Shown here in pieces: positions 3,525-18,890 of a stretch of 40,163 nucleotides of DNA. A program made the translations under genes and the position numbers. Below the pieces are notes generated by a model, which worked only from the letters and a program-made list of their open reading frames with translations, was not told where the DNA came from and did no database searches. The DNA is taken from assembly GCA_048938445.1 (NCBI GenBank), contig JBHLME010000031.1, forward strand, positions 1 through 40,163, in the 5' to 3' direction. This DNA is from Promethearchaeota archaeon (GTDB lineage Archaea; Asgardarchaeota; Lokiarchaeia; Sigyniarchaeales; SOKP01). Every line of letters begins with the position of its first letter. Position 1 is the first letter of the stretch.

Positions 3525-4508
3525 GTGGTTTTTATTAAATCTGACGAAAAATCTCTTCTTGAGAAAAAGAAGGAAAAATTAGATGAGAGTATAATTATTG
3601 AAAAAACAGAAGAGATGATTAAATATGAAAAAGAGACGGGAAAATTTGCAATTTGGAAAGGTGAAGTTACTAAAGGATTTATAAAATGGCAAAAAGGAGA
3701 AAAAATCTATGAATATGGAACTGATGTTAGACCTAGAGTTACCACAACATTAGATCCAAAGACAAGAATGATGTGGAATCAATTTGAAGAAGACTTTAAT
3801 TATAAAACCGCTAAACTCATCCGAGATGGTGTAAATTTATTCATAATGGTTAAACTCTTATTGAGAGACTTAGGAAAGGATTTTAGTTATAAAGAAACAA
3901 AATCCTTTATAAAAACAACTATAAATTCATATTTAATAGATAAAGAAAGGATGAATAAAGAATTATTACATGACATCATGGATATATTAAATGCAATAAA
4001 AGGATTTACTTTAATGTCAATTGATGATTATCCTGAAAAAGATTCTGTAGAATACATGCAAAAAGTTATGGAACAAGTGACATTATTAAAAGACAAGATA
4101 GAAACCCATTTTCAAGAGCCAATCAAAGCCATTATTGGTCCGAAGGAATGTGATATACTTGTTATTGATGATTACGAGCCAACAATTGATTTTATAACGA
4201 AATATTTTAAAAAAAGATCGATTACGATTCAAAGTGCTCATTCTGCAGAAAATGCAATGCTAAAACTAAAAAATCTCACTCCTAAACTAATCTTACTTGA
4301 TATAGGATTGCCTGGAATTGATGGTGATGAATTTTGTAGGAATTTGAAAGCTAAACCCTTAACACGAGATATTCCAGTTATATTTATTACTGCCTATACC
4401 AACAATAGCACTAAATCTTTATTAAACGAAACACAAGCAGTTGATTTAATTCAAAAACCTTTTGGAAAAAATGATTTAGATCTTGTATTTAAATATTTAA
4501 AAAAGTAA
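3525..4508 (+). CDS. Response regulator with C-terminal receiver domain and extended N-terminus
   Basis: Receiver motifs ILVIDD, LILLDIGLPGIDG, PVIFITA, KPF. GTG start; directly downstream of the kinase. Confidence 0.9.
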   Translation: MVFIKSDEKSLLEKKKEKLDESIIIEKTEEMIKYEKETGKFAIWKGEVTKGFIKWQKGEKIYEYGTDVRPRVTTTLDPKTRMMWNQFEEDFNYKTAKLIRDGVNLFIMVKLLLRDLGKDFSYKETKSFIKTTINSYLIDKERMNKELLHDIMDILNAIKGFTLMSIDDYPEKDSVEYMQKVMEQVTLLKDKIETHFQEPIKAIIGPKECDILVIDDYEPTIDFITKYFKKRSITIQSAHSAENAMLKLKNLTPKLILLDIGLPGIDGDEFCRNLKAKPLTRDIPVIFITAYTNNSTKSLLNETQAVDLIQKPFGKNDLDLVFKYLKK

Positions 4509-4643
4509 AAGTATAGTAATTTTCAAATTATCAAATTTAAATTTAATAATTCTTGAACTATTAATCCCAAAAGATAATTTTATTTAATTTTAATACTATA
4601 TGATCCTAAATAATAACCTGAGAACTTTTAATATCAAATTATC

Positions 4644-6152
4644 ATGACAAATGAATCTAATAAATCTGAAACAGAAGAAATAAAAAAATCTGCTAAAGCT
4701 ATTGTGTTAAAAGCAGAAGCTTATAAAACTATAATTCTGTATGCGAGCCGATATGCAAATAATGCAATACCCCCAAAAGATTGGAAAGAGATTTATGGAA
4801 TTTTAATAGGTAATTCTGATGATCAAATGATATATGTAAACAAAGCGGAAGCATTAACCTTTGGACATTCAACAGATGTTCAACTAGATGAGAAACATTA
4901 TGGTTTTATCGAACAAATTGAACTTAAATTACTCGAGGAAGGTAAAAAAGATTATATGATTGGTTGGTTTCATTCTCATCCTGGTTTAGGTTTATTTTTT
5001 TCATATATTGATCTCATCAACCAATTAGGATTTCAAGCTAGAAATGATGATTTTATAGGATTAGTATTTGACCATACGTTATTAGGGAAAAAAAAAGAAG
5101 AAGACATAAATGGACATATACTCACAAAATATGATACAGGATTTGAAATCTATCAATTATCTGACGTTAATATGGATATAAACGCTCCACATTTTGATTC
5201 AAATTATCATAAAATGGATTATATTGTTCAAGGTTTAAATAAGTTCTTTTTTGCTAATGTTTTAACAGAATTATCTACGTTAGTCACTGTTGGAAAACCA
5301 TTGGAGTCTGCTTATGGTGAAGATTATTCCTCAAGTCCGAGACGAGAAGATTCTTATTCAATACATCAAGATCAAAAAGATTATATAACCCAAGACATCT
5401 TAACTGAGATTCCAAAATCAGAGGACATGATTTTTAATGTAGATGGTTTTTCTTATGAGGAAACCTATGATAAAAAAGCAAAAAAACTTGATAATGTTAA
5501 ACGAGAAGCTGAAGAATTAATATTTGAAGGAAATAGAGCATTCAAGGAAAGAGATTCTTTTACTGGAGTTGAAAAATTTAAAGAAGGAATTAAATTATAT
5601 AAAAAAATAGATGATTTTGATAGAGTATTAGATTTACTTAATCAAATTTGTGAAAAAACCATACTTAATAATCATTTGAATTTAGCAGAACAATTTGTAG
5701 AAGAACTTCATATTTTAGCAAAAAAAAAGAACCATTTATTTTATAGAGGCAAAGCTAATTATCTTAAAGGATATTTACTGCTAAAAAGTAGTGATGATGC
5801 AGATATAGAGACCGCTTTAAAAATAATTCAAGATGGTGCTGTTGACTATGTGAAAGAGAATGATTATGCTGGAGCAGGAATGTGTTTTCACAAAATAGGT
5901 AATATGTATCATTTGAGATTGAAAAATTTGGAGAGTGCAGTTTTATTCTATAAAGAAGCGATATTAAATTATAATAATGCTATTTTAAGTCAACATCCAT
6001 TAAGAAGATCTCTCTGGAGTAAACCAGAATCGCTCATTCAGAAAATTCTTGAGTTAAGGGATATCGTTTATGGATTATTACCTAAAATAGAAAATTTGAA
6101 ATTAAAACAAAAAGTTCAAACGGACATGAATAACATTAGATATAATTTTTAA
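4644..6152 (+). CDS. MPN+/JAMM metalloprotease (Rpn11/CSN5-like) with C-terminal TPR-like helical region
   Basis: KEIYGILIG ... IGWFHSHPGLGLFFSYID matches E...HxH-x7-S-x2-D. C-terminal half has TPR-like helices (AGMCFHKIGNMY, AVLFYKEA). Confidence 0.85.
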   Translation: MTNESNKSETEEIKKSAKAIVLKAEAYKTIILYASRYANNAIPPKDWKEIYGILIGNSDDQMIYVNKAEALTFGHSTDVQLDEKHYGFIEQIELKLLEEGKKDYMIGWFHSHPGLGLFFSYIDLINQLGFQARNDDFIGLVFDHTLLGKKKEEDINGHILTKYDTGFEIYQLSDVNMDINAPHFDSNYHKMDYIVQGLNKFFFANVLTELSTLVTVGKPLESAYGEDYSSSPRREDSYSIHQDQKDYITQDILTEIPKSEDMIFNVDGFSYEETYDKKAKKLDNVKREAEELIFEGNRAFKERDSFTGVEKFKEGIKLYKKIDDFDRVLDLLNQICEKTILNNHLNLAEQFVEELHILAKKKNHLFYRGKANYLKGYLLLKSSDDADIETALKIIQDGAVDYVKENDYAGAGMCFHKIGNMYHLRLKNLESAVLFYKEAILNYNNAILSQHPLRRSLWSKPESLIQKILELRDIVYGLLPKIENLKLKQKVQTDMNNIRYNF

Positions 6153-12738: not shown

Positions 12739-14679
12739 CTAAATTGTAGAATTTCTCGTGAAATTAAGTTTACCTCCAGCAATAACTATATCTATTTCTC
12801 TATTTGATAAATCATGTATAACTTCAAATTTTGTTTCTTGAGTTTTATTCTGAACAATGATAGATTTATTATTATTCTTTATACCTTTCAAAATGTCATA
12901 AATTTCCAGGATATCACCTTGATTTATTTTTTCATAATCATTTTCATTTTTAAACGTAAATGGAATGATTCCAAAATTTACTAAATTATCTCTATGAATT
13001 CGAGCAAATGATTTTGTAATAACAATTTTAATACCTAAATACATTGGTGCCAATGCTGCGTGTTCTCTACTTGAACCTTGTCCGTAGTTAATTCCTCCGA
13101 TGATCAATCCACCTCCTTTTTCCTTGTTTTCAATTGCTCTCATTGCGAAAGAAGGATCTTTCTGACTAAATACAAATTCACTGATTTTTGGTAGATTTGA
13201 TCTGAAAGGAAGGATTTTAGCTCCTGCGGGCATAATATCATCAGTCGTAATGTTATCTTCTACCTTGATTAAGACTTTTAAATTCGTTATATCTTTTGTT
13301 AAAGGAGAAAAATCTGGTAAGGGTGTAATATTTGGTCCCCTAATTATCTTCACTGAATCAGGATCAATAGAAGGTTCAATAATTTGAGAATCATCAATCA
13401 GGATCTTTTCAGGTAACTTAATATTAGGGTAATGTCCAATTTTTCTAGGATCCGTGATTTCTCCAAATAAAGCAGATGCAACTGCTGTCTCTGGACTCCC
13501 TAAATATATTTCAGCAGATAAAGTACCGCTCCTTCCACAAAAATTTCGATTAAATGTTCTCACGGCTATTGCATTTGATTTTGGAGCAAATCCCATTCCT
13601 ATACAAGGGCCACAAGCCGTTTCTAATAATCTTGCTCCAGAAGATATGATGTCTGTTAAAGCACCAACTCTGGACATTTCTAGGAGGACTTGACGCGATC
13701 CTGGAGAGATACCCATGATAACATCTTCATGAATTTTACGTCCCTTAAGGAAGGCAGCAATTATCATCATGTCTTTTAATGAACTATTCGTACAAGATCC
13801 TATAGCAACTTGATCAACTTTCAATCCTTCAACTTCAGAAACAGGAACGACATTACCTGGTGAATGGGGTTTTGCAATTAAAGGTATTAGTTTTGATAAA
13901 TCAATTTCAATTATTTCATCAAAATCATTATCTGAACCGCCCGCAATCTTAATCCATTGATCCCCTCTGCCTTCTAATTCTAAAAACTTACGAGTAACAT
14001 CATCCGAAGGAAAAATCGATGTTGTTGCCCCCGTTTCAGCACCCATATTCGTAATAGTTGCTCTTTCAGGAACTGTTAAACTACTCACTCCAGGACCAAA
14101 ATATTCTAATATATAACCTACTCCACCTATAACATCCATTCTTCTCAATATTTCTAAAATCACGTCTTTGGCTGAGACAAAATCTGGTAAAGACCCAATT
14201 AATTTAATTCCAAGTAATTTTGGTGTTTTCAAATAAAATAGACCTCCTCCCATAGCTACTGCTACATCTAAACCTCCTGCACCTATTGCAATCATTCCCA
14301 TCCCTCCCGCGGTTGGAGTATGAGAATCTGATCCAATTAAGGTCTTACCTGGACGAGCAAATCTTTCAAGAAACACTTGATGGCAGATCCCGTTCCCTGG
14401 TTTTGAGAATTTTATTCCATACTTTGCAGCGACTGAAGCAAGATATCTATGGTCATCTGCATTTTTAAAATCTGTTTGTAAGGTATTATGATCGACAAAA
14501 GACACTGACAATTCCGTTTTAACCTTTTTTAATTTCATTGCTTCGAATTGCAAATAAGCCATAGTACCTGTAGCATCTTGAGTTAAGGTATGATCAATTT
14601 TAATACCAATTTCCTTTCCAACAATTAATTCGCCTTCTACAAGATGTTCTTCCAATATTTTTCGTGCTATTGATGTCAT
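12739..14679 (-). CDS. acn: Aconitate hydratase (short archaeal/Aquifex-type, 4Fe-4S)
   Basis: QDATGT, DHNT, GNGICHQ, GSDSHT, IGSCTNSS, CGPCIG, TFNRNF, GQGSSREHAA. Confidence 0.93.
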   Translation of the reverse strand: MTSIARKILEEHLVEGELIVGKEIGIKIDHTLTQDATGTMAYLQFEAMKLKKVKTELSVSFVDHNTLQTDFKNADDHRYLASVAAKYGIKFSKPGNGICHQVFLERFARPGKTLIGSDSHTPTAGGMGMIAIGAGGLDVAVAMGGGLFYLKTPKLLGIKLIGSLPDFVSAKDVILEILRRMDVIGGVGYILEYFGPGVSSLTVPERATITNMGAETGATTSIFPSDDVTRKFLELEGRGDQWIKIAGGSDNDFDEIIEIDLSKLIPLIAKPHSPGNVVPVSEVEGLKVDQVAIGSCTNSSLKDMMIIAAFLKGRKIHEDVIMGISPGSRQVLLEMSRVGALTDIISSGARLLETACGPCIGMGFAPKSNAIAVRTFNRNFCGRSGTLSAEIYLGSPETAVASALFGEITDPRKIGHYPNIKLPEKILIDDSQIIEPSIDPDSVKIIRGPNITPLPDFSPLTKDITNLKVLIKVEDNITTDDIMPAGAKILPFRSNLPKISEFVFSQKDPSFAMRAIENKEKGGGLIIGGINYGQGSSREHAALAPMYLGIKIVITKSFARIHRDNLVNFGIIPFTFKNENDYEKINQGDILEIYDILKGIKNNNKSIIVQNKTQETKFEVIHDLSNREIDIVIAGGKLNFTRNSTI

Positions 14680-14829
14680 TTTACTTGAGAGTAAAGTTTG
14701 TATAATATTAATAGAAACTAATGATTGTTATTTTAAATGTTTTCCAAGAAATATTAATCAATTATTAAACATAGATTAAAGAAAATAAGTAAAAAAAAAG
14801 TATTATTTCTGAAACGGTTGCAACCGAAA

Positions 14830-14866
14830 ATCGCTAATCTTCTACAATTTTTTAAGATTAGTTCAT
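14830..14866 (-). promoter_or_regulatory. SECIS-like element 1 (3' UTR, eukaryote-type)
   Basis: Minus strand AUGA-A-CUAAUCUU-AAAAAAUUGUAG-AAGAUUAG-C-GAU: UGA/GA core, perfect 8-bp stem, A-run at the 5' side of the loop. Starts 20 nt after the stop of a TGA-containing gene. Confidence 0.85.
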
Positions 14867-14886
14867 ATTTTTTTATTTTATATTTT

Positions 14887-15240
14887 TTAATTTTCTATTT
14901 TTAAAGATAGTGTTGCCTGTTGCTTGCCAAATCTTTTCCAATTTTTCACGTCTACTACAACGTTCCTACCATATGGTTCTAACTCATTTAACAGCATTTT
15001 ATCAATATATATTTCAATAGACATGTCAGTACTTCCTCCATTTCCATTCCATTTTTCAAAATTTCCATTATCAATAACTTGCTGTTTTAATGCTAATTGA
15101 ACCAAATTATAACAATATGTTCTTGATCAAGAACGTGTCGTGTATTTGTATATGGCTAGAACGATATCATCTTTTTTATCTATAGACGCTTGTTGTTCAT
15201 GAATAAGATCTGATGCTTCCTTTGTTAATGTTAGATTCAT
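14887..15240 (-). CDS. Putative selenoprotein, HesB/IscA-like fold, 117 aa, Sec38
   Basis: ATG at 15240 is in frame with the track ORF 14887..15105 through one TGA (15129-15127): MNLTLTKEASDLIHEQQASIDKKDDIVLAIYKYTTRS-U-SRTYCYNLVQL. A paralog upstream and a SECIS-like hairpin downstream support it. Confidence 0.85.
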
Positions 15241-15490
15241 TGTAATTATTCATTTTTTGTTATTTTATACTTATTTAAAGAGATAACTTAAACAAAAAAT
15301 TTGAGATTATAAAATAAAAATATAATACTATTTTTTATTAAAAATTATTTCTGTTCCAAATATTAAAAGATTAAGATTGTAAAGACTCCTTAATAAGATT
15401 TTTAAAAAAAAGGAAACGCTTACTCATAAAATATTGAAAGACCTTAAAAGGAATCAAATACATGATATTCACGGTTAGGGTGCACCTTTA

Positions 15491-15526
15491 ATCATCGACC
15501 TTCTAACATTTTTAAGATCGTTTCAT
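15491..15526 (-). promoter_or_regulatory. SECIS-like element 2 (3' UTR, eukaryote-type)
   Basis: Minus strand AUGA-A-ACGAUCUU-AAAAAUGUUAG-AAGGUCGA-U-GAU: stem CGAUCUU/AAGGUCG, same geometry as element 1. Starts 1 nt after the stop codon. Confidence 0.85.
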
Positions 15527-15527
15527 T

Positions 15528-15887
15528 TTAGCCATAAGTATCAGTATTTAACTTTTTCATGAGCAATAATCCCATTTTTTTACCCTTGACCTCACTCACG
15601 ATTGCATCTATTACTATTATTCCTTTTTCCTCCAATTCAGGAATGATAGATTTCTCCATGTACACCTCAACGTCAGGATTTTCTTCAATACTATCCCATT
15701 TAACGAATTCAACATAACCTTCGAAAACTTTATACTTTTCAACTAATTCAAGCACGTTTCCACAAAAGCTCATCGTTCAAGTTGAGGAAGAATAATAAAA
15801 TATCGCAACTACAAGCTCATTTAACTCTTGTTGTTGTTGCTCATGAATGTAATCCAATGCAGTTTGAGTAAAAGATACTTTAAACAA
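15528..15887 (-). CDS. Putative selenoprotein, HesB/IscA-like fold, 119 aa, Sec37
   Basis: TTG at 15887, preceded by SD AGGTGA, is in frame with the track ORF 15528..15773 through one TGA (15779-15777): MFKVSFTQTALDYIHEQQQQELNELVVAIFYYSSST-U-TMSFCGNVLEL. Confidence 0.85.
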
Positions 15888-16010
15888 AAATCACCTATAA
15901 AATATAATTATAAATCAAATAAAGTAATACAAAATTATAAAAAAAATTAACTTAACAAGCATTTTAAAATAGAACGAAAAAAATAAAAATTTGTAGTTAT
16001 TATGGATTTT

Positions 16011-18890
16011 CTATTTTTTAATTCTGTTTCTTATGTTTTTTCTCCAAAGACTTAGAGGGGTATCAATCCCTTCTTTTTTCCTGATACGCCATTTTCTTAA
16101 TTCATCAATAACAGAGACACTAAAGGCACCAAGGAAAAGGGCAATCCAATAGTATGGGTGATATAGCGGAACAAGGTTAAATATTAATCCAAAAGGAGTA
16201 TATAAAAGTACAAATTGCAATACTACTGAAATACCGACAGCCCAGAATAATTTTTTATTTGGAAAGAGATAAAATGGTTTTTTATTGGATGTACAAGCAA
16301 AAACAAACATTAATTCACAAAACACCAAATTAGTAAATAAAATAGTTTGTGCTAATGATATTGCATATGCTTGTGCTTCAGGATTTGTTAAATATCCGAC
16401 TAACTGAGGATCTATTGCGGGTGTAGCCCATGCAGGTATCAGTACTGACCATAGTAATAAATATAGTGCAATATCTGTGATAGATGTATAAATTCCAAGA
16501 AGTAAAACAGGCCCTTTGATCTCTGGTATGAGCGTGAAACCTTTACGTGGAGGATCTTTCATAACATCAGGATCCGTTGGTGTGAATCCTAAAGCCATTG
16601 CGGGAAGGGCATCAGTAGCTATATTAAGCCATAAGATTTGCAAGACATTAACTGGAAGTTTAAGAAATATAGAGCCAAGTAATCTTGTTACGATAAAGCC
16701 TACAAGTAATAAGAAGATTTCATCAAAATTCGTGCTTAACATAAATCTGAAAAAACCTTTCGTTGTTTCAAATATTCCTCTTCCTTCTTCAATTGCATTA
16801 ATGATTGTTGCGTAATTATCATCAATTAGAATCATTTCAGAAGCTTCTTGCGTTACTTCGGTACCTTTTAGCCCCATCGCAACTCCAACATGAGCTCCTT
16901 TAACCGCAGGAGCATCGTTCACCCCATCACCCGTCATTGCAACAATATCATCCAATTCTTTTAATCTCCTCAGAATTCTTAATTTATGTTCTGAGGTAAC
17001 TCTTGCGTATATGTCCACTGTTTTAACTTTTTCTCGCAGTTCATCATCACTCATTATTTCTAATTCAACTCCAGTAATTGCCTCATCTGAATCAGTCAAA
17101 CCAATTTGATGGGCAATTGCTACAGCAGTTACCTTATGATCTCCTGTGATCATGATGGTTCTAATTCCTGCCATTTTTGCCTCTGCAATTGCATCCTTAA
17201 CCTCATCTCTTGCAGGATCAATTATTCCGGCTAAACCAAGAAAGATATAATCTTTTTCCATTTCTTCTTCAGAAAAACCCTCATTTAATGGTTTATATGC
17301 TAGTCCTAGTACCCTTAATGCATTTTTAGCAAAAGACTCGTTTTGATTTAAAATTAAATCTTGAACTTCGCTAATTGGTTTTTCCTCCCCATTTAGCAGC
17401 CCCTTACTAGCGTTTTTCAATAAGACATCGGGAGCACCTTTAATCATAGAATACAAATTTCCATCTATATTAACTGCTACTGACATCATTTTTCTATCCG
17501 AGCTAAATGGAATTTCACTTACTTTTTCTGCTTGGGTATCGAGATCCATTTTCATTGCTAATACTTTAAAGCAAATTTCAGTAGGATCACCTACAACATC
17601 AGTATTGCTCGTTCCATCATTTTTGGGATGCACGCTTGAGTTATTACAAAACATAGCAACTTCTAGGAACTTTTTTAAATCTGAATTAATCGGTACTAGA
17701 TTGCCATCATCCATTATTTTCCCTTCAAGAGCATACCCAACACCTTCAACATCATATTCTTTACCTCCCAAAAATACTTTAACAATGGTCATTTCGTTTT
17801 TTGTAAGTGTACCTGTTTTATCCGAACATATGATATTAATTCGACCCAAAGTTTCAACAGCTGTTAATTTTCTCACTAAAGCATTCCTATCTGCCATTTT
17901 TTTCATTCCTATACTCATTACAATGGTTATTACCACTATAAGTCCTTCAGGAACAGCAGAAACGGCTAAACTTATAGAAAGTTCGAATGCGTTAATAATA
18001 TCTTCAATAAAATCTGTAAGTGCATTAGGGTGTGCAAAATCTGTCGTGAATAAGACAATAATAAAATCTATAGCAAATACGGCAAGGCATATTATAATGA
18101 TTAGTTTTCCCAGGAGTGCTCCAAATTTGTTCACTTCTTTCTGAAATGGACTAAGTACTTCAACTTCTTCTTGCAATTTTTCAGCTATTTTTCCTATTTC
18201 CGTGTTCATCCCAGAGCCAATAACAATACCTTCTCCATTTCCTCTAGTAATAATGGTATTCATATAGCCAAGATTAGTTCTATCGGCTAATATTTCCTTT
18301 TCATCAACTATTTTTAATTTCTTTTTTACTGGTTCAGATTCTCCAGTCAAAATTGCTTCATCCACATATAGAGAAAATTCCTTGAAAAGCCGAATATCTG
18401 CGGGAAATTTATCTCCTTGTTCAACTAAGACAATATCTCCAGGGACTATATTTCCTGCATCAATCTCTTGAACTCTTCCGTCCCGTCTGACTTTAGCAAA
18501 GTGAGGTGCTAATTTTTTTAAACTCTCCAGTGATTTTTCAGCTGAATACTCCTGGTAAAATCCCAATACGGCATTAACAATTAAGATTGCTATAATCACG
18601 ATTGCTTCCGTATATTCTGAAGGCCATAGTTCTCCATCTGTATAAGTATGCCATATCCCAATAACTATAGAAACAGCTATAGCAAAGAATAAAAGATAAA
18701 TGAGAATATCTTTAAACTGGCCTATAAAAATTTGTAATGCCGTCTTTCCCTTTGTTTTTATTAATTCATTTTTTCCGAATTTTTCAAGTCTTTTCTCGAC
18801 TTCTCCACCAGTTAAACCCACAGCAATTGAAGTATCCAACAGTTTTACGACTTCGTTAATCTCTTTAGAATGTGCATTGATAATTTCCAT
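16011..18890 (-). CDS. Cation-transporting P-type ATPase (P2A, Ca2+-type)
   Basis: LTGES, AVPEGL, CSDKTGTLT, KGAPD, TGDGVNDAPA, LWLNIATD; about 10 TM. Confidence 0.96.
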   Translation of the reverse strand: MEIINAHSKEINEVVKLLDTSIAVGLTGGEVEKRLEKFGKNELIKTKGKTALQIFIGQFKDILIYLLFFAIAVSIVIGIWHTYTDGELWPSEYTEAIVIIAILIVNAVLGFYQEYSAEKSLESLKKLAPHFAKVRRDGRVQEIDAGNIVPGDIVLVEQGDKFPADIRLFKEFSLYVDEAILTGESEPVKKKLKIVDEKEILADRTNLGYMNTIITRGNGEGIVIGSGMNTEIGKIAEKLQEEVEVLSPFQKEVNKFGALLGKLIIIICLAVFAIDFIIVLFTTDFAHPNALTDFIEDIINAFELSISLAVSAVPEGLIVVITIVMSIGMKKMADRNALVRKLTAVETLGRINIICSDKTGTLTKNEMTIVKVFLGGKEYDVEGVGYALEGKIMDDGNLVPINSDLKKFLEVAMFCNNSSVHPKNDGTSNTDVVGDPTEICFKVLAMKMDLDTQAEKVSEIPFSSDRKMMSVAVNIDGNLYSMIKGAPDVLLKNASKGLLNGEEKPISEVQDLILNQNESFAKNALRVLGLAYKPLNEGFSEEEMEKDYIFLGLAGIIDPARDEVKDAIAEAKMAGIRTIMITGDHKVTAVAIAHQIGLTDSDEAITGVELEIMSDDELREKVKTVDIYARVTSEHKLRILRRLKELDDIVAMTGDGVNDAPAVKGAHVGVAMGLKGTEVTQEASEMILIDDNYATIINAIEEGRGIFETTKGFFRFMLSTNFDEIFLLLVGFIVTRLLGSIFLKLPVNVLQILWLNIATDALPAMALGFTPTDPDVMKDPPRKGFTLIPEIKGPVLLLGIYTSITDIALYLLLWSVLIPAWATPAIDPQLVGYLTNPEAQAYAISLAQTILFTNLVFCELMFVFACTSNKKPFYLFPNKKLFWAVGISVVLQFVLLYTPFGLIFNLVPLYHPYYWIALFLGAFSVSVIDELRKWRIRKKEGIDTPLSLWRKNIRNRIKK

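Follow-up and report, generated by a model that had tools for sequence, protein, structure and literature searches.

Candidate selenoproteins with an IscA/HesB-like fold and their Asgard-type SECIS hairpins in a Promethearchaeota genome

Two short hairpins on the minus strand of a 40,163-nucleotide stretch of Promethearchaeota DNA (the window, contig C113 of an assembly of 4.63 Mb with 29.6% GC) are very probably Asgard-type SECIS elements, one for each of two small genes, and would direct the insertion of selenocysteine (Sec) at in-frame UGA codons some 250 to 260 nt upstream. Five observations carry this assignment of function: the hairpin motif, covariation in its stem, its exclusive tie to TGA-containing genes, conservation of the TGA itself and the presence of Sec machinery in the genome. 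The features in question are as follows.

15528..15887, minus strand: gene A (P0001), TTG start, 119 codons and a TAA stop
15491..15526, minus strand: SECIS A, 1 nt past the stop of gene A and 251 nt past its UGA
15404..15411, minus strand: run of eight Ts downstream of SECIS A, read directly from the sequence, possibly an archaeal termination signal
14887..15240, minus strand: gene B (P0002), ATG start, 117 codons and a TAA stop
14830..14866, minus strand: SECIS B, 20 nt past the stop of gene B and 261 nt past its UGA
14791..14799, minus strand: run of nine Ts downstream of SECIS B, read directly from the sequence, possibly an archaeal termination signal

The in-frame TGA is codon 37 of gene A (15779-15777), within the motif S-S-T-U-T-M-S-F-C, and codon 38 of gene B (15129-15127), within R-S-U-S-R-T-Y-C. 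The two genes are paralogues (30% identity, E 7e-17) and are the only copies of their family in the genome, each with a single TGA. Read with the standard code, each gene falls apart into a short N-terminal fragment and, after it, an ORF of 72-81 residues. A homologue of gene B that is 70% identical has W at the TGA column, i.e., a called TGA.

Both hairpins lie where an earlier sequence-only reading of the window had placed them, and an independent motif scan recovered the same intervals, 14830-14866 and 15491-15526. SECIS A consists of AUGA and one further position, a stem of seven standard pairs with an A.A mismatch at its base, and an 11-nt loop that starts with AAAAA and ends with AG, followed by N-GA-U. 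SECIS B has AUGA and one unpaired position, eight Watson-Crick pairs, and a 12-nt loop that starts with AAAAAA and ends with AG, again followed by N-GA-U. The compensatory changes that had been claimed between the two stems (U-A to C-G, A-U to G-C and U-A to U-G) are all three correct. The A.A mismatch, which occupies the place of the first pair in SECIS A, had passed without mention. ViennaRNA returns both stems as the minimum free energy (MFE) or centroid structure. The stability of the hairpins is no better than that of shuffled sequences (z -0.84 and 0.01) in this AT-rich DNA; because the energies are ordinary, the case for the hairpins is one of motif and context and not of folding energy.

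The closest known relative of these elements is the lokiSECIS, the type I, eSECIS-like element of Asgard archaea, described in the main text of Mariotti et al. (2016, PMC4989117) as AUGA, a 9-bp stem, an 11-nt loop and then GA, near the stop codon. The first five loop positions are there mostly A, and the last is an ultraconserved G, usually with an A before it. The window elements share the AUGA 5' of the stem, a stem of nine positions (eight standard pairs), the GA 3' of the stem, the five leading loop A's, the AG loop end in both elements and a location just behind a coding sequence that contains an in-frame UGA, the genome being one that has Sec machinery. They differ in the 12-nt loop of SECIS B and in one non-standard position at the base of each stem. 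With eukaryotic SECIS elements (Rfam SECIS_1 etc.) they have in common the AUGA_GA quartet, unpaired A's in the apical loop, a site in the 3' UTR and a presumed action across hundreds of nucleotides, whereas their helix II is shorter and no Rfam model matches. Nothing in the window reaches an Rfam gathering score, and no SECIS family is found at E <=10 in 14600-16100, so the window elements are best regarded as an Asgard variant and not as members of the eukaryotic family. The sequence-only reading had assigned to each gene one eukaryote-type SECIS like those of Lokiarchaeota; this is supported by the presence of all of the lokiSECIS features, within the limit that the Rfam eukaryotic models do not match. 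Its remark that the stem is shorter than the eukaryotic helix II agrees with the wording in the main text of PMC4989117. Methanogen (euryarchaeal) SECIS elements are described in the main texts of PMC11227280 and PMC13188914 as having a GAA_A bulge in a GC-rich stem. The folds in the window are by contrast unbroken AU-rich helices with no GAA_A-type internal bulge, in keeping with the earlier statement that they differ from the methanogen form; this comparison is by description, as opposed to a dedicated model.

Searching the genome for the motif can reveal how closely it follows TGA-containing genes. A strict descriptor (ATGAN, a perfect stem of >=6 pairs, a loop of 8-16 nt starting with AAA, then NGA) gave 20 matches in the genome and 3 in the reversed genome, and nine of the 20 are alike in having a stem of 8 bp and a loop of 11 or 12 nt that reads AAAAA...AG. 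When one mismatch was allowed and the AG loop end was required, there were 14 matches against 1. A covariance model, R1, was built from nine own-genome elements that include both window hairpins. AUGA is invariant in all nine, and the GA 3' of the stem is invariant in alignments A2 (own genome) and A5 (orthologues); the pair counts from the own-genome elements are partly true by construction, as a stem filter had been used in selecting the sequences. With 150 of 5678 first-look candidates scored, R1 finds at least 14 matches at 29.7 bits or more (the nine training elements and five more), the next being at 22.9 bits, and 13 of the 14 follow an ORF with an in-frame TGA at a distance of at most 60 nt:

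Behind selD, which has one TGA
Behind four VhuD genes that each contain two TGA and follow an HdrA gene with 2-4 TGA
Behind one VhuU, a TGA-containing ORF
Behind an HdrA gene with five TGA, at 30.2 bits and with an AGGA core
Behind three tandem TGA-containing genes on contig C53
Behind a TGA-containing ORF of 48 codons on contig C24
Behind the two window genes, SECIS A at 48.0 bits and SECIS B at 47.2 bits, both of them training members

Such a scan had been expected to hit behind selD, hdrA, vhuD and similar genes; its matches do lie behind selD, HdrA-VhuD and VhuU, and it revealed further TGA-containing genes. A match on contig C209 (29.7 and 32.2 bits) was rejected as a SECIS element and is probably false, since it sits within a TGA-free ORF; matches near 30 bits can therefore be spurious.

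The loci that encode a FlpD/VhuD domain allow a direct comparison of genes with and without TGA. Of 14 such loci, the four with TGA all carry the element and the ten without TGA carry none (150 candidates scored per scan). Because R1 contained the window elements, a leave-out model, R2, was built from the elements behind selD, the four VhuD genes and the one VhuU only. With filters off, R2 ranks the window hairpins first and second in the 40-kb window: SECIS A scores 22.9 bits (E 0.005) and SECIS B 17.4 bits (E 0.1), an unrelated window match being barely lower at 16.5 bits. Elements of known families alone thus pick out SECIS A clearly and SECIS B only marginally.

Two loci from the genome scans deserve mention. 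R2, for which 150 of 7458 candidates were scored, finds an extra SECIS at C176:91018-91066 (34.8 bits), about 180 nt behind the ORF of a NiFe-hydrogenase large subunit; the gap before it presumably holds a second small VhuU gene. At C214:62711-62758, the HdrA gene with five in-frame TGA has no VhuD behind it, and its element reads AGGA instead of AUGA at the core (R1 30.2 bits, R2 33.2 bits).

One alternative is that the hairpins are kink-turn RNAs whose role has nothing to do with Sec and which, by binding a protein such as L7Ae, serve mRNA stability or the control of translation. The AUGA/GA core is a generic kink-turn signature, which is what this explanation would need. In addition, SBP2 is absent from Asgard archaea according to the main texts of PMC4989117 and PMC11227280. 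It would nevertheless leave unexplained both the 13 of 14 strong matches behind genes with an in-frame TGA and the presence of the element on the TGA-containing FlpD copies only, and for these reasons we consider it highly unlikely.

The genome also has the parts needed to make and deliver Sec. SepSecS is present at 471.7 bits, a SelB-like factor on contig C108 at 243.3 bits and a PSTK-like gene at 159 bits, under the curated cut-off, and selD itself has one in-frame TGA. A tRNA with anticodon UCA spans the ends of C108 and C157, and the overlap of these two contigs, about 72 nt, links tRNA, SepSecS and SelB-like gene. SepSecS follows the tRNA directly, and the SelB-like gene lies some 4.6 kb away on the opposite strand. 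The Rfam tRNA-Sec model gives this tRNA 39.5 bits, below its cut-off and over the 3' 70 nt only, the 9/4 fold and the remainder having been assigned by eye, and ARAGORN run on the whole genome reports no tRNA-Sec. By eye, the 5' strand of the D-stem of the tRNA (L002 1449-1571, L001 1-75) appears to be interrupted by about 30 inserted nt, and the T-loop is intact. The tRNA-Sec of Lokiarchaeum is described in the main text of Mariotti et al. (2016, PMC4989117) as having a 31-nt intron in the T-loop.

On the basis of these parts, a mechanism can be proposed. In the mRNA, the 5' AUGA and the 3' GA would come together as a kink-turn-like core of tandem G.A pairs at the base of an 8-9-bp helix, with the A-rich loop as its cap. 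This structure would recruit the SelB/EFSec homologue encoded on C108 together with Sec-tRNA(UCA), either directly or via an adaptor, and the UGA at codon 37 of gene A and codon 38 of gene B would then be read as Sec instead of as a stop. The predicted products are proteins of 119 and 117 residues with an IscA/HesB-like fold and a U-x4-C motif.

The UGA could instead be decoded in some other manner, by Trp or Cys suppression or by general read-through, in which case the hairpin would be unneeded. The source database does give W at that column in homologues, but the W most probably comes from gene calling with TGA=Trp, and the Sec machinery and UCA tRNA of the genome point elsewhere, as does the partner Cys of the U-x4-C motif. 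A Cys four residues after Sec is typical of Sec redox motifs. A genome-wide reassignment of TGA was rejected, with TGA as the stop of 320 of 1820 ORFs of >=300 codons; because of these stops, and because several orthologues end on TGA, the decoding must be site-specific. We regard decoding of this other kind as exceedingly improbable.

At five loci, namely the C204 VhuD (L024 ~5118-5127), L049, L052, L065 and L066, the TGA that ends the gene lies at or inside the SECIS core, so that the same codon would be Sec far upstream and a stop beside the element.

Relatives in other genomes give further support to Sec decoding in the window genes. A search with gene A against 1.84 billion representative proteins gave 27 relatives at E <=0.001, of which eight, short or partial, were set aside and 19 were aligned together with P0001, P0002 and another homologue. 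In nine full-length sequences the Sec column holds a W that we infer to be a TGA called under another code, most probably TGA=Trp; nine relatives start two or three residues past the column, and one ends just before it. The distant member P0031 has Cys there. Public gene calls give proteins of 72-86 residues that start right after the TGA. In a scan of species-representative genomes, 18 related loci were found, labelled as Asgard (Promethearchaeota and similar) or as uncultured archaeal MAGs, and all 18 have TGA at the same column, inside a conserved S-x-x-U-x3-F-C-G-N block. With the Sec machinery, the TGA-linked motif and this conserved column taken together, the earlier view of the hairpins as support for Sec decoding is upheld.

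The element travels with the gene. R1, which was trained on none of these loci, has a match starting at the gene end in 16 of the 18. In one of the other two (L053) the contig is cut 17 nt past the gene, and in the other (L066, 1866-1940) the element, which R1 missed, has about 40 nt inserted in its apical loop before the A-run. The orthologue of gene B in L049 has the orthologous element behind it, at 45 bits. AUGA is found in 15 of 17 distinct orthologous matches, the closely related L054 and L055 reading AUGU, and the loop of L063 ends in UG, not AG. Among the orthologous matches, 97.8% of cells pair and double changes occur at all eight pairs, compared with 49-57% in slid controls, in an alignment (A5) that was fitted to R1. 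RNAalifold on a plain MAFFT alignment predicts the same helix and a ninth pair beside the core. The loop insertion of L066 resembles a type II-like expansion.

The distribution of the family is narrow. It was found in 25 of 301 evenly sampled genomes of the phylum, all in the window's own taxonomic family: 24 of the 68 other genomes of that family have it and 0 of 232 elsewhere in the phylum. The sample yielded 34 matches: 31 with a single in-frame TGA, two that lack it and a fragment. At G282:C334 and G210:C10 the genes form a tandem triple of which the middle copy is without TGA (Sec, non-Sec, Sec); the window genome has two Sec copies only.

The likeness of the proteins to a known fold comes from structure prediction. 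No Pfam model matches P0001 or P0002, with nothing beyond noise at E <=1, and no NCBIfam family matches them at E <=1, TIGR01911 included. The Pfam model PF01521 (Fe-S_biosyn) does not detect either protein, a six-frame search of the genome included; on the distant member P0031 it gives E 0.0013, below its cut-off. An AlphaFold2 model of the 119-residue read-through, made from the family alignment, is a single domain predicted with confidence (pLDDT 87.5, pTM 0.79). The top PDB structures returned by Foldseek are IscA/SufA proteins (1r94, 1s98, 2d2a and 1x0g; probability 1.00, TM 0.56/0.66), and Sec is placed in the modelled turn that joins two long strands (residues 25-35 and 40-50). Searched against PDB sequences, the family profile yielded no meaningful match and P0031 none at all. 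Going by the model, genes A and B may encode selenoproteins that have a U-x4-C motif and fold like IscA/HesB, probably with a function in thiol/selenol-based redox or in metal or Fe-S handling.

The window proteins share their predicted fold with the IscA/SufA A-type Fe-S carriers at 10-16% sequence identity, and the family alignment has no C-terminal Cys pair; the turn that holds the Sec may correspond to the first IscA cysteine. A HesB-like selenoprotein of Methanococcus maripaludis, listed under TIGR01911 with the motif UxGP (PMC13188914, Table 1; PMC11097638), is likewise small, archaeal, related to IscA/HesB and of unassigned function. The window motifs are U-T-M-S-F-C and U-S-R-T-Y-C (U-x4-C) and not UxGP, however, the HMM does not match, and the SECIS elements are of the Asgard and not the methanogen type. 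Judged from their sequences, the TIGR01911 HesB-like proteins and the window family are different families.

It might also be argued that the hairpins are generic structures of the 3' end, terminator-like or repeats, and that the TGAs are true stops, each gene being two short ORFs or a pseudogene; hairpins no more stable than shuffles, T-runs behind both elements and public gene calls that begin just after the TGA would suit this, but conservation on both sides of the TGA in 18 of 18 loci, the TGA in 31 of 34 phylum matches, the modelling of the full read-through as one IscA-like domain and a motif that is rare and bound to TGA-containing genes make it extremely unlikely.

Beyond the core hairpin, the RNA of this family may have an extension of its own. 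The following features are taken from unconstrained MFE folds, the last from the fold around SECIS B.

15464..15542, minus strand: extended SECIS A, proposed, unconstrained MFE
15542-15532 (last codons) with 15474-15464, minus strand: lower helix of SECIS A, unconstrained MFE
15486-15478, minus strand: GC-rich mini-hairpin of SECIS A, between the GA and the lower helix, unconstrained MFE
14815..14826, minus strand: mini-hairpin 3' of SECIS B, which folds as a GC-rich stem of 4 bp with a 4-nt loop and is also found in orthologues

A GC-rich mini-hairpin lies just 3' of the GA in both window elements and in most orthologues; its stem is usually CGG/CCG and is fully swapped in one orthologue. The statement in the sequence-only reading that the flanking UTR is mostly not conserved holds only in part, as the mini-hairpin 3' of each core is common to both genes and to orthologues. 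Pairing is also possible between the final codons of the gene and the stretch that follows the mini-hairpin, and unconstrained folds give a three-way arrangement in most of 18 sequences. Pairs were counted on a MAFFT alignment (A6) against the structure of a single sequence. The paired share is 71.5% for the lower helix, where six of eight pairs show double changes, and 78.9% for the mini-hairpin, where three of four do; slid controls of the whole extended structure give 40-52%. RNAalifold on the extended alignment predicts the main helix only, leaving out the lower helix and the mini-hairpin. The extended SECIS is thus moderately supported. No description of a mini-hairpin or a last-codon lower helix was found for the lokiSECIS in the main texts of PMC4989117 and PMC11227280.

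The RNA element itself adds little, because SECIS elements of the Lokiarchaeota type have been known since 2016; the host protein family, in contrast, appears to be unlisted in published accounts of Asgard selenoproteins. It is absent from the five families given in the main text of the 2016 study and from the seven of 2024. The latter come from Huang et al. (2024, PMC11227280), whose main text describes a search of >400 Asgard genomes by homology to known families; a DsbA-like protein and a homologue of the AhpF N-terminus are their additions. The same Asgard family list is given in the main text of a 2026 review (PMC13188914), and the main text of Sun et al. (2021, PMC9723677) names HdrA, Prx and MvhD only. 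No link between the window protein family and Asgard archaea came up in full-text literature searches, though supplementary tables may list more. Taken as a whole, this may be an uncatalogued, Asgard-restricted selenoprotein family (IscA/HesB fold, U-x4-C, nearly always Sec and rarely Cys), confined in the sample to one taxonomic family and served by a SECIS element with a three-way junction of its own that could be a docking site for an archaeal SECIS-binding factor. We put this composite forward tentatively, as something that could be so but on which we would stop a little short of an even judgement.

These findings matter in several ways. Gene callers cut genes A and B at the TGA, and their read-through products form a small selenoprotein family that is missing from homology-based surveys, which suggests that the number of Asgard selenoproteins is underestimated and that searches starting from the SECIS would find more. 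A site of an IscA-like fold that is nearly always Sec is a good candidate for biochemistry, and a family-specific SECIS extension offers a concrete RNA with which the missing archaeal SECIS-binding protein can be sought. In the present genome, the SECIS-first scan recovered the selenoproteome, including a multi-Sec cluster that resembles mercury-methylation loci and a membrane ORF of 48 codons.

The cluster (C53:7001-13666, L021, positions 4414-5821) consists of three tandem TGA genes, each with its own SECIS at 56-59 bits by R1. Two of the genes, each of about 150 residues, are paralogues in which Sec codons stand side by side (U-G-U-U and C-U-U), and the third has 74 codons, four of them TGA, and matches NCBIfam NF041374, 'GDCCVxC domain-containing (seleno)protein', at 57.1 bits. 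Upstream of the trio are an HgcB-like ferredoxin, which scores below the cut-off, and a fusion protein that combines a methyltransferase with a CdhD-like domain and membrane helices. The cluster looks like one for mercury methylation or metal handling.

The 48-codon ORF (C24:2880-5928, L036, positions 1320-1463) has no Pfam or NCBIfam match. It has one predicted membrane helix and a C-P-U-S end, and its SECIS, an AUGA...AA variant, lies 34 nt downstream at C24:4380-4428 (R1 42.7 bits, R2 39.6 bits). It may encode a tiny membrane selenoprotein.
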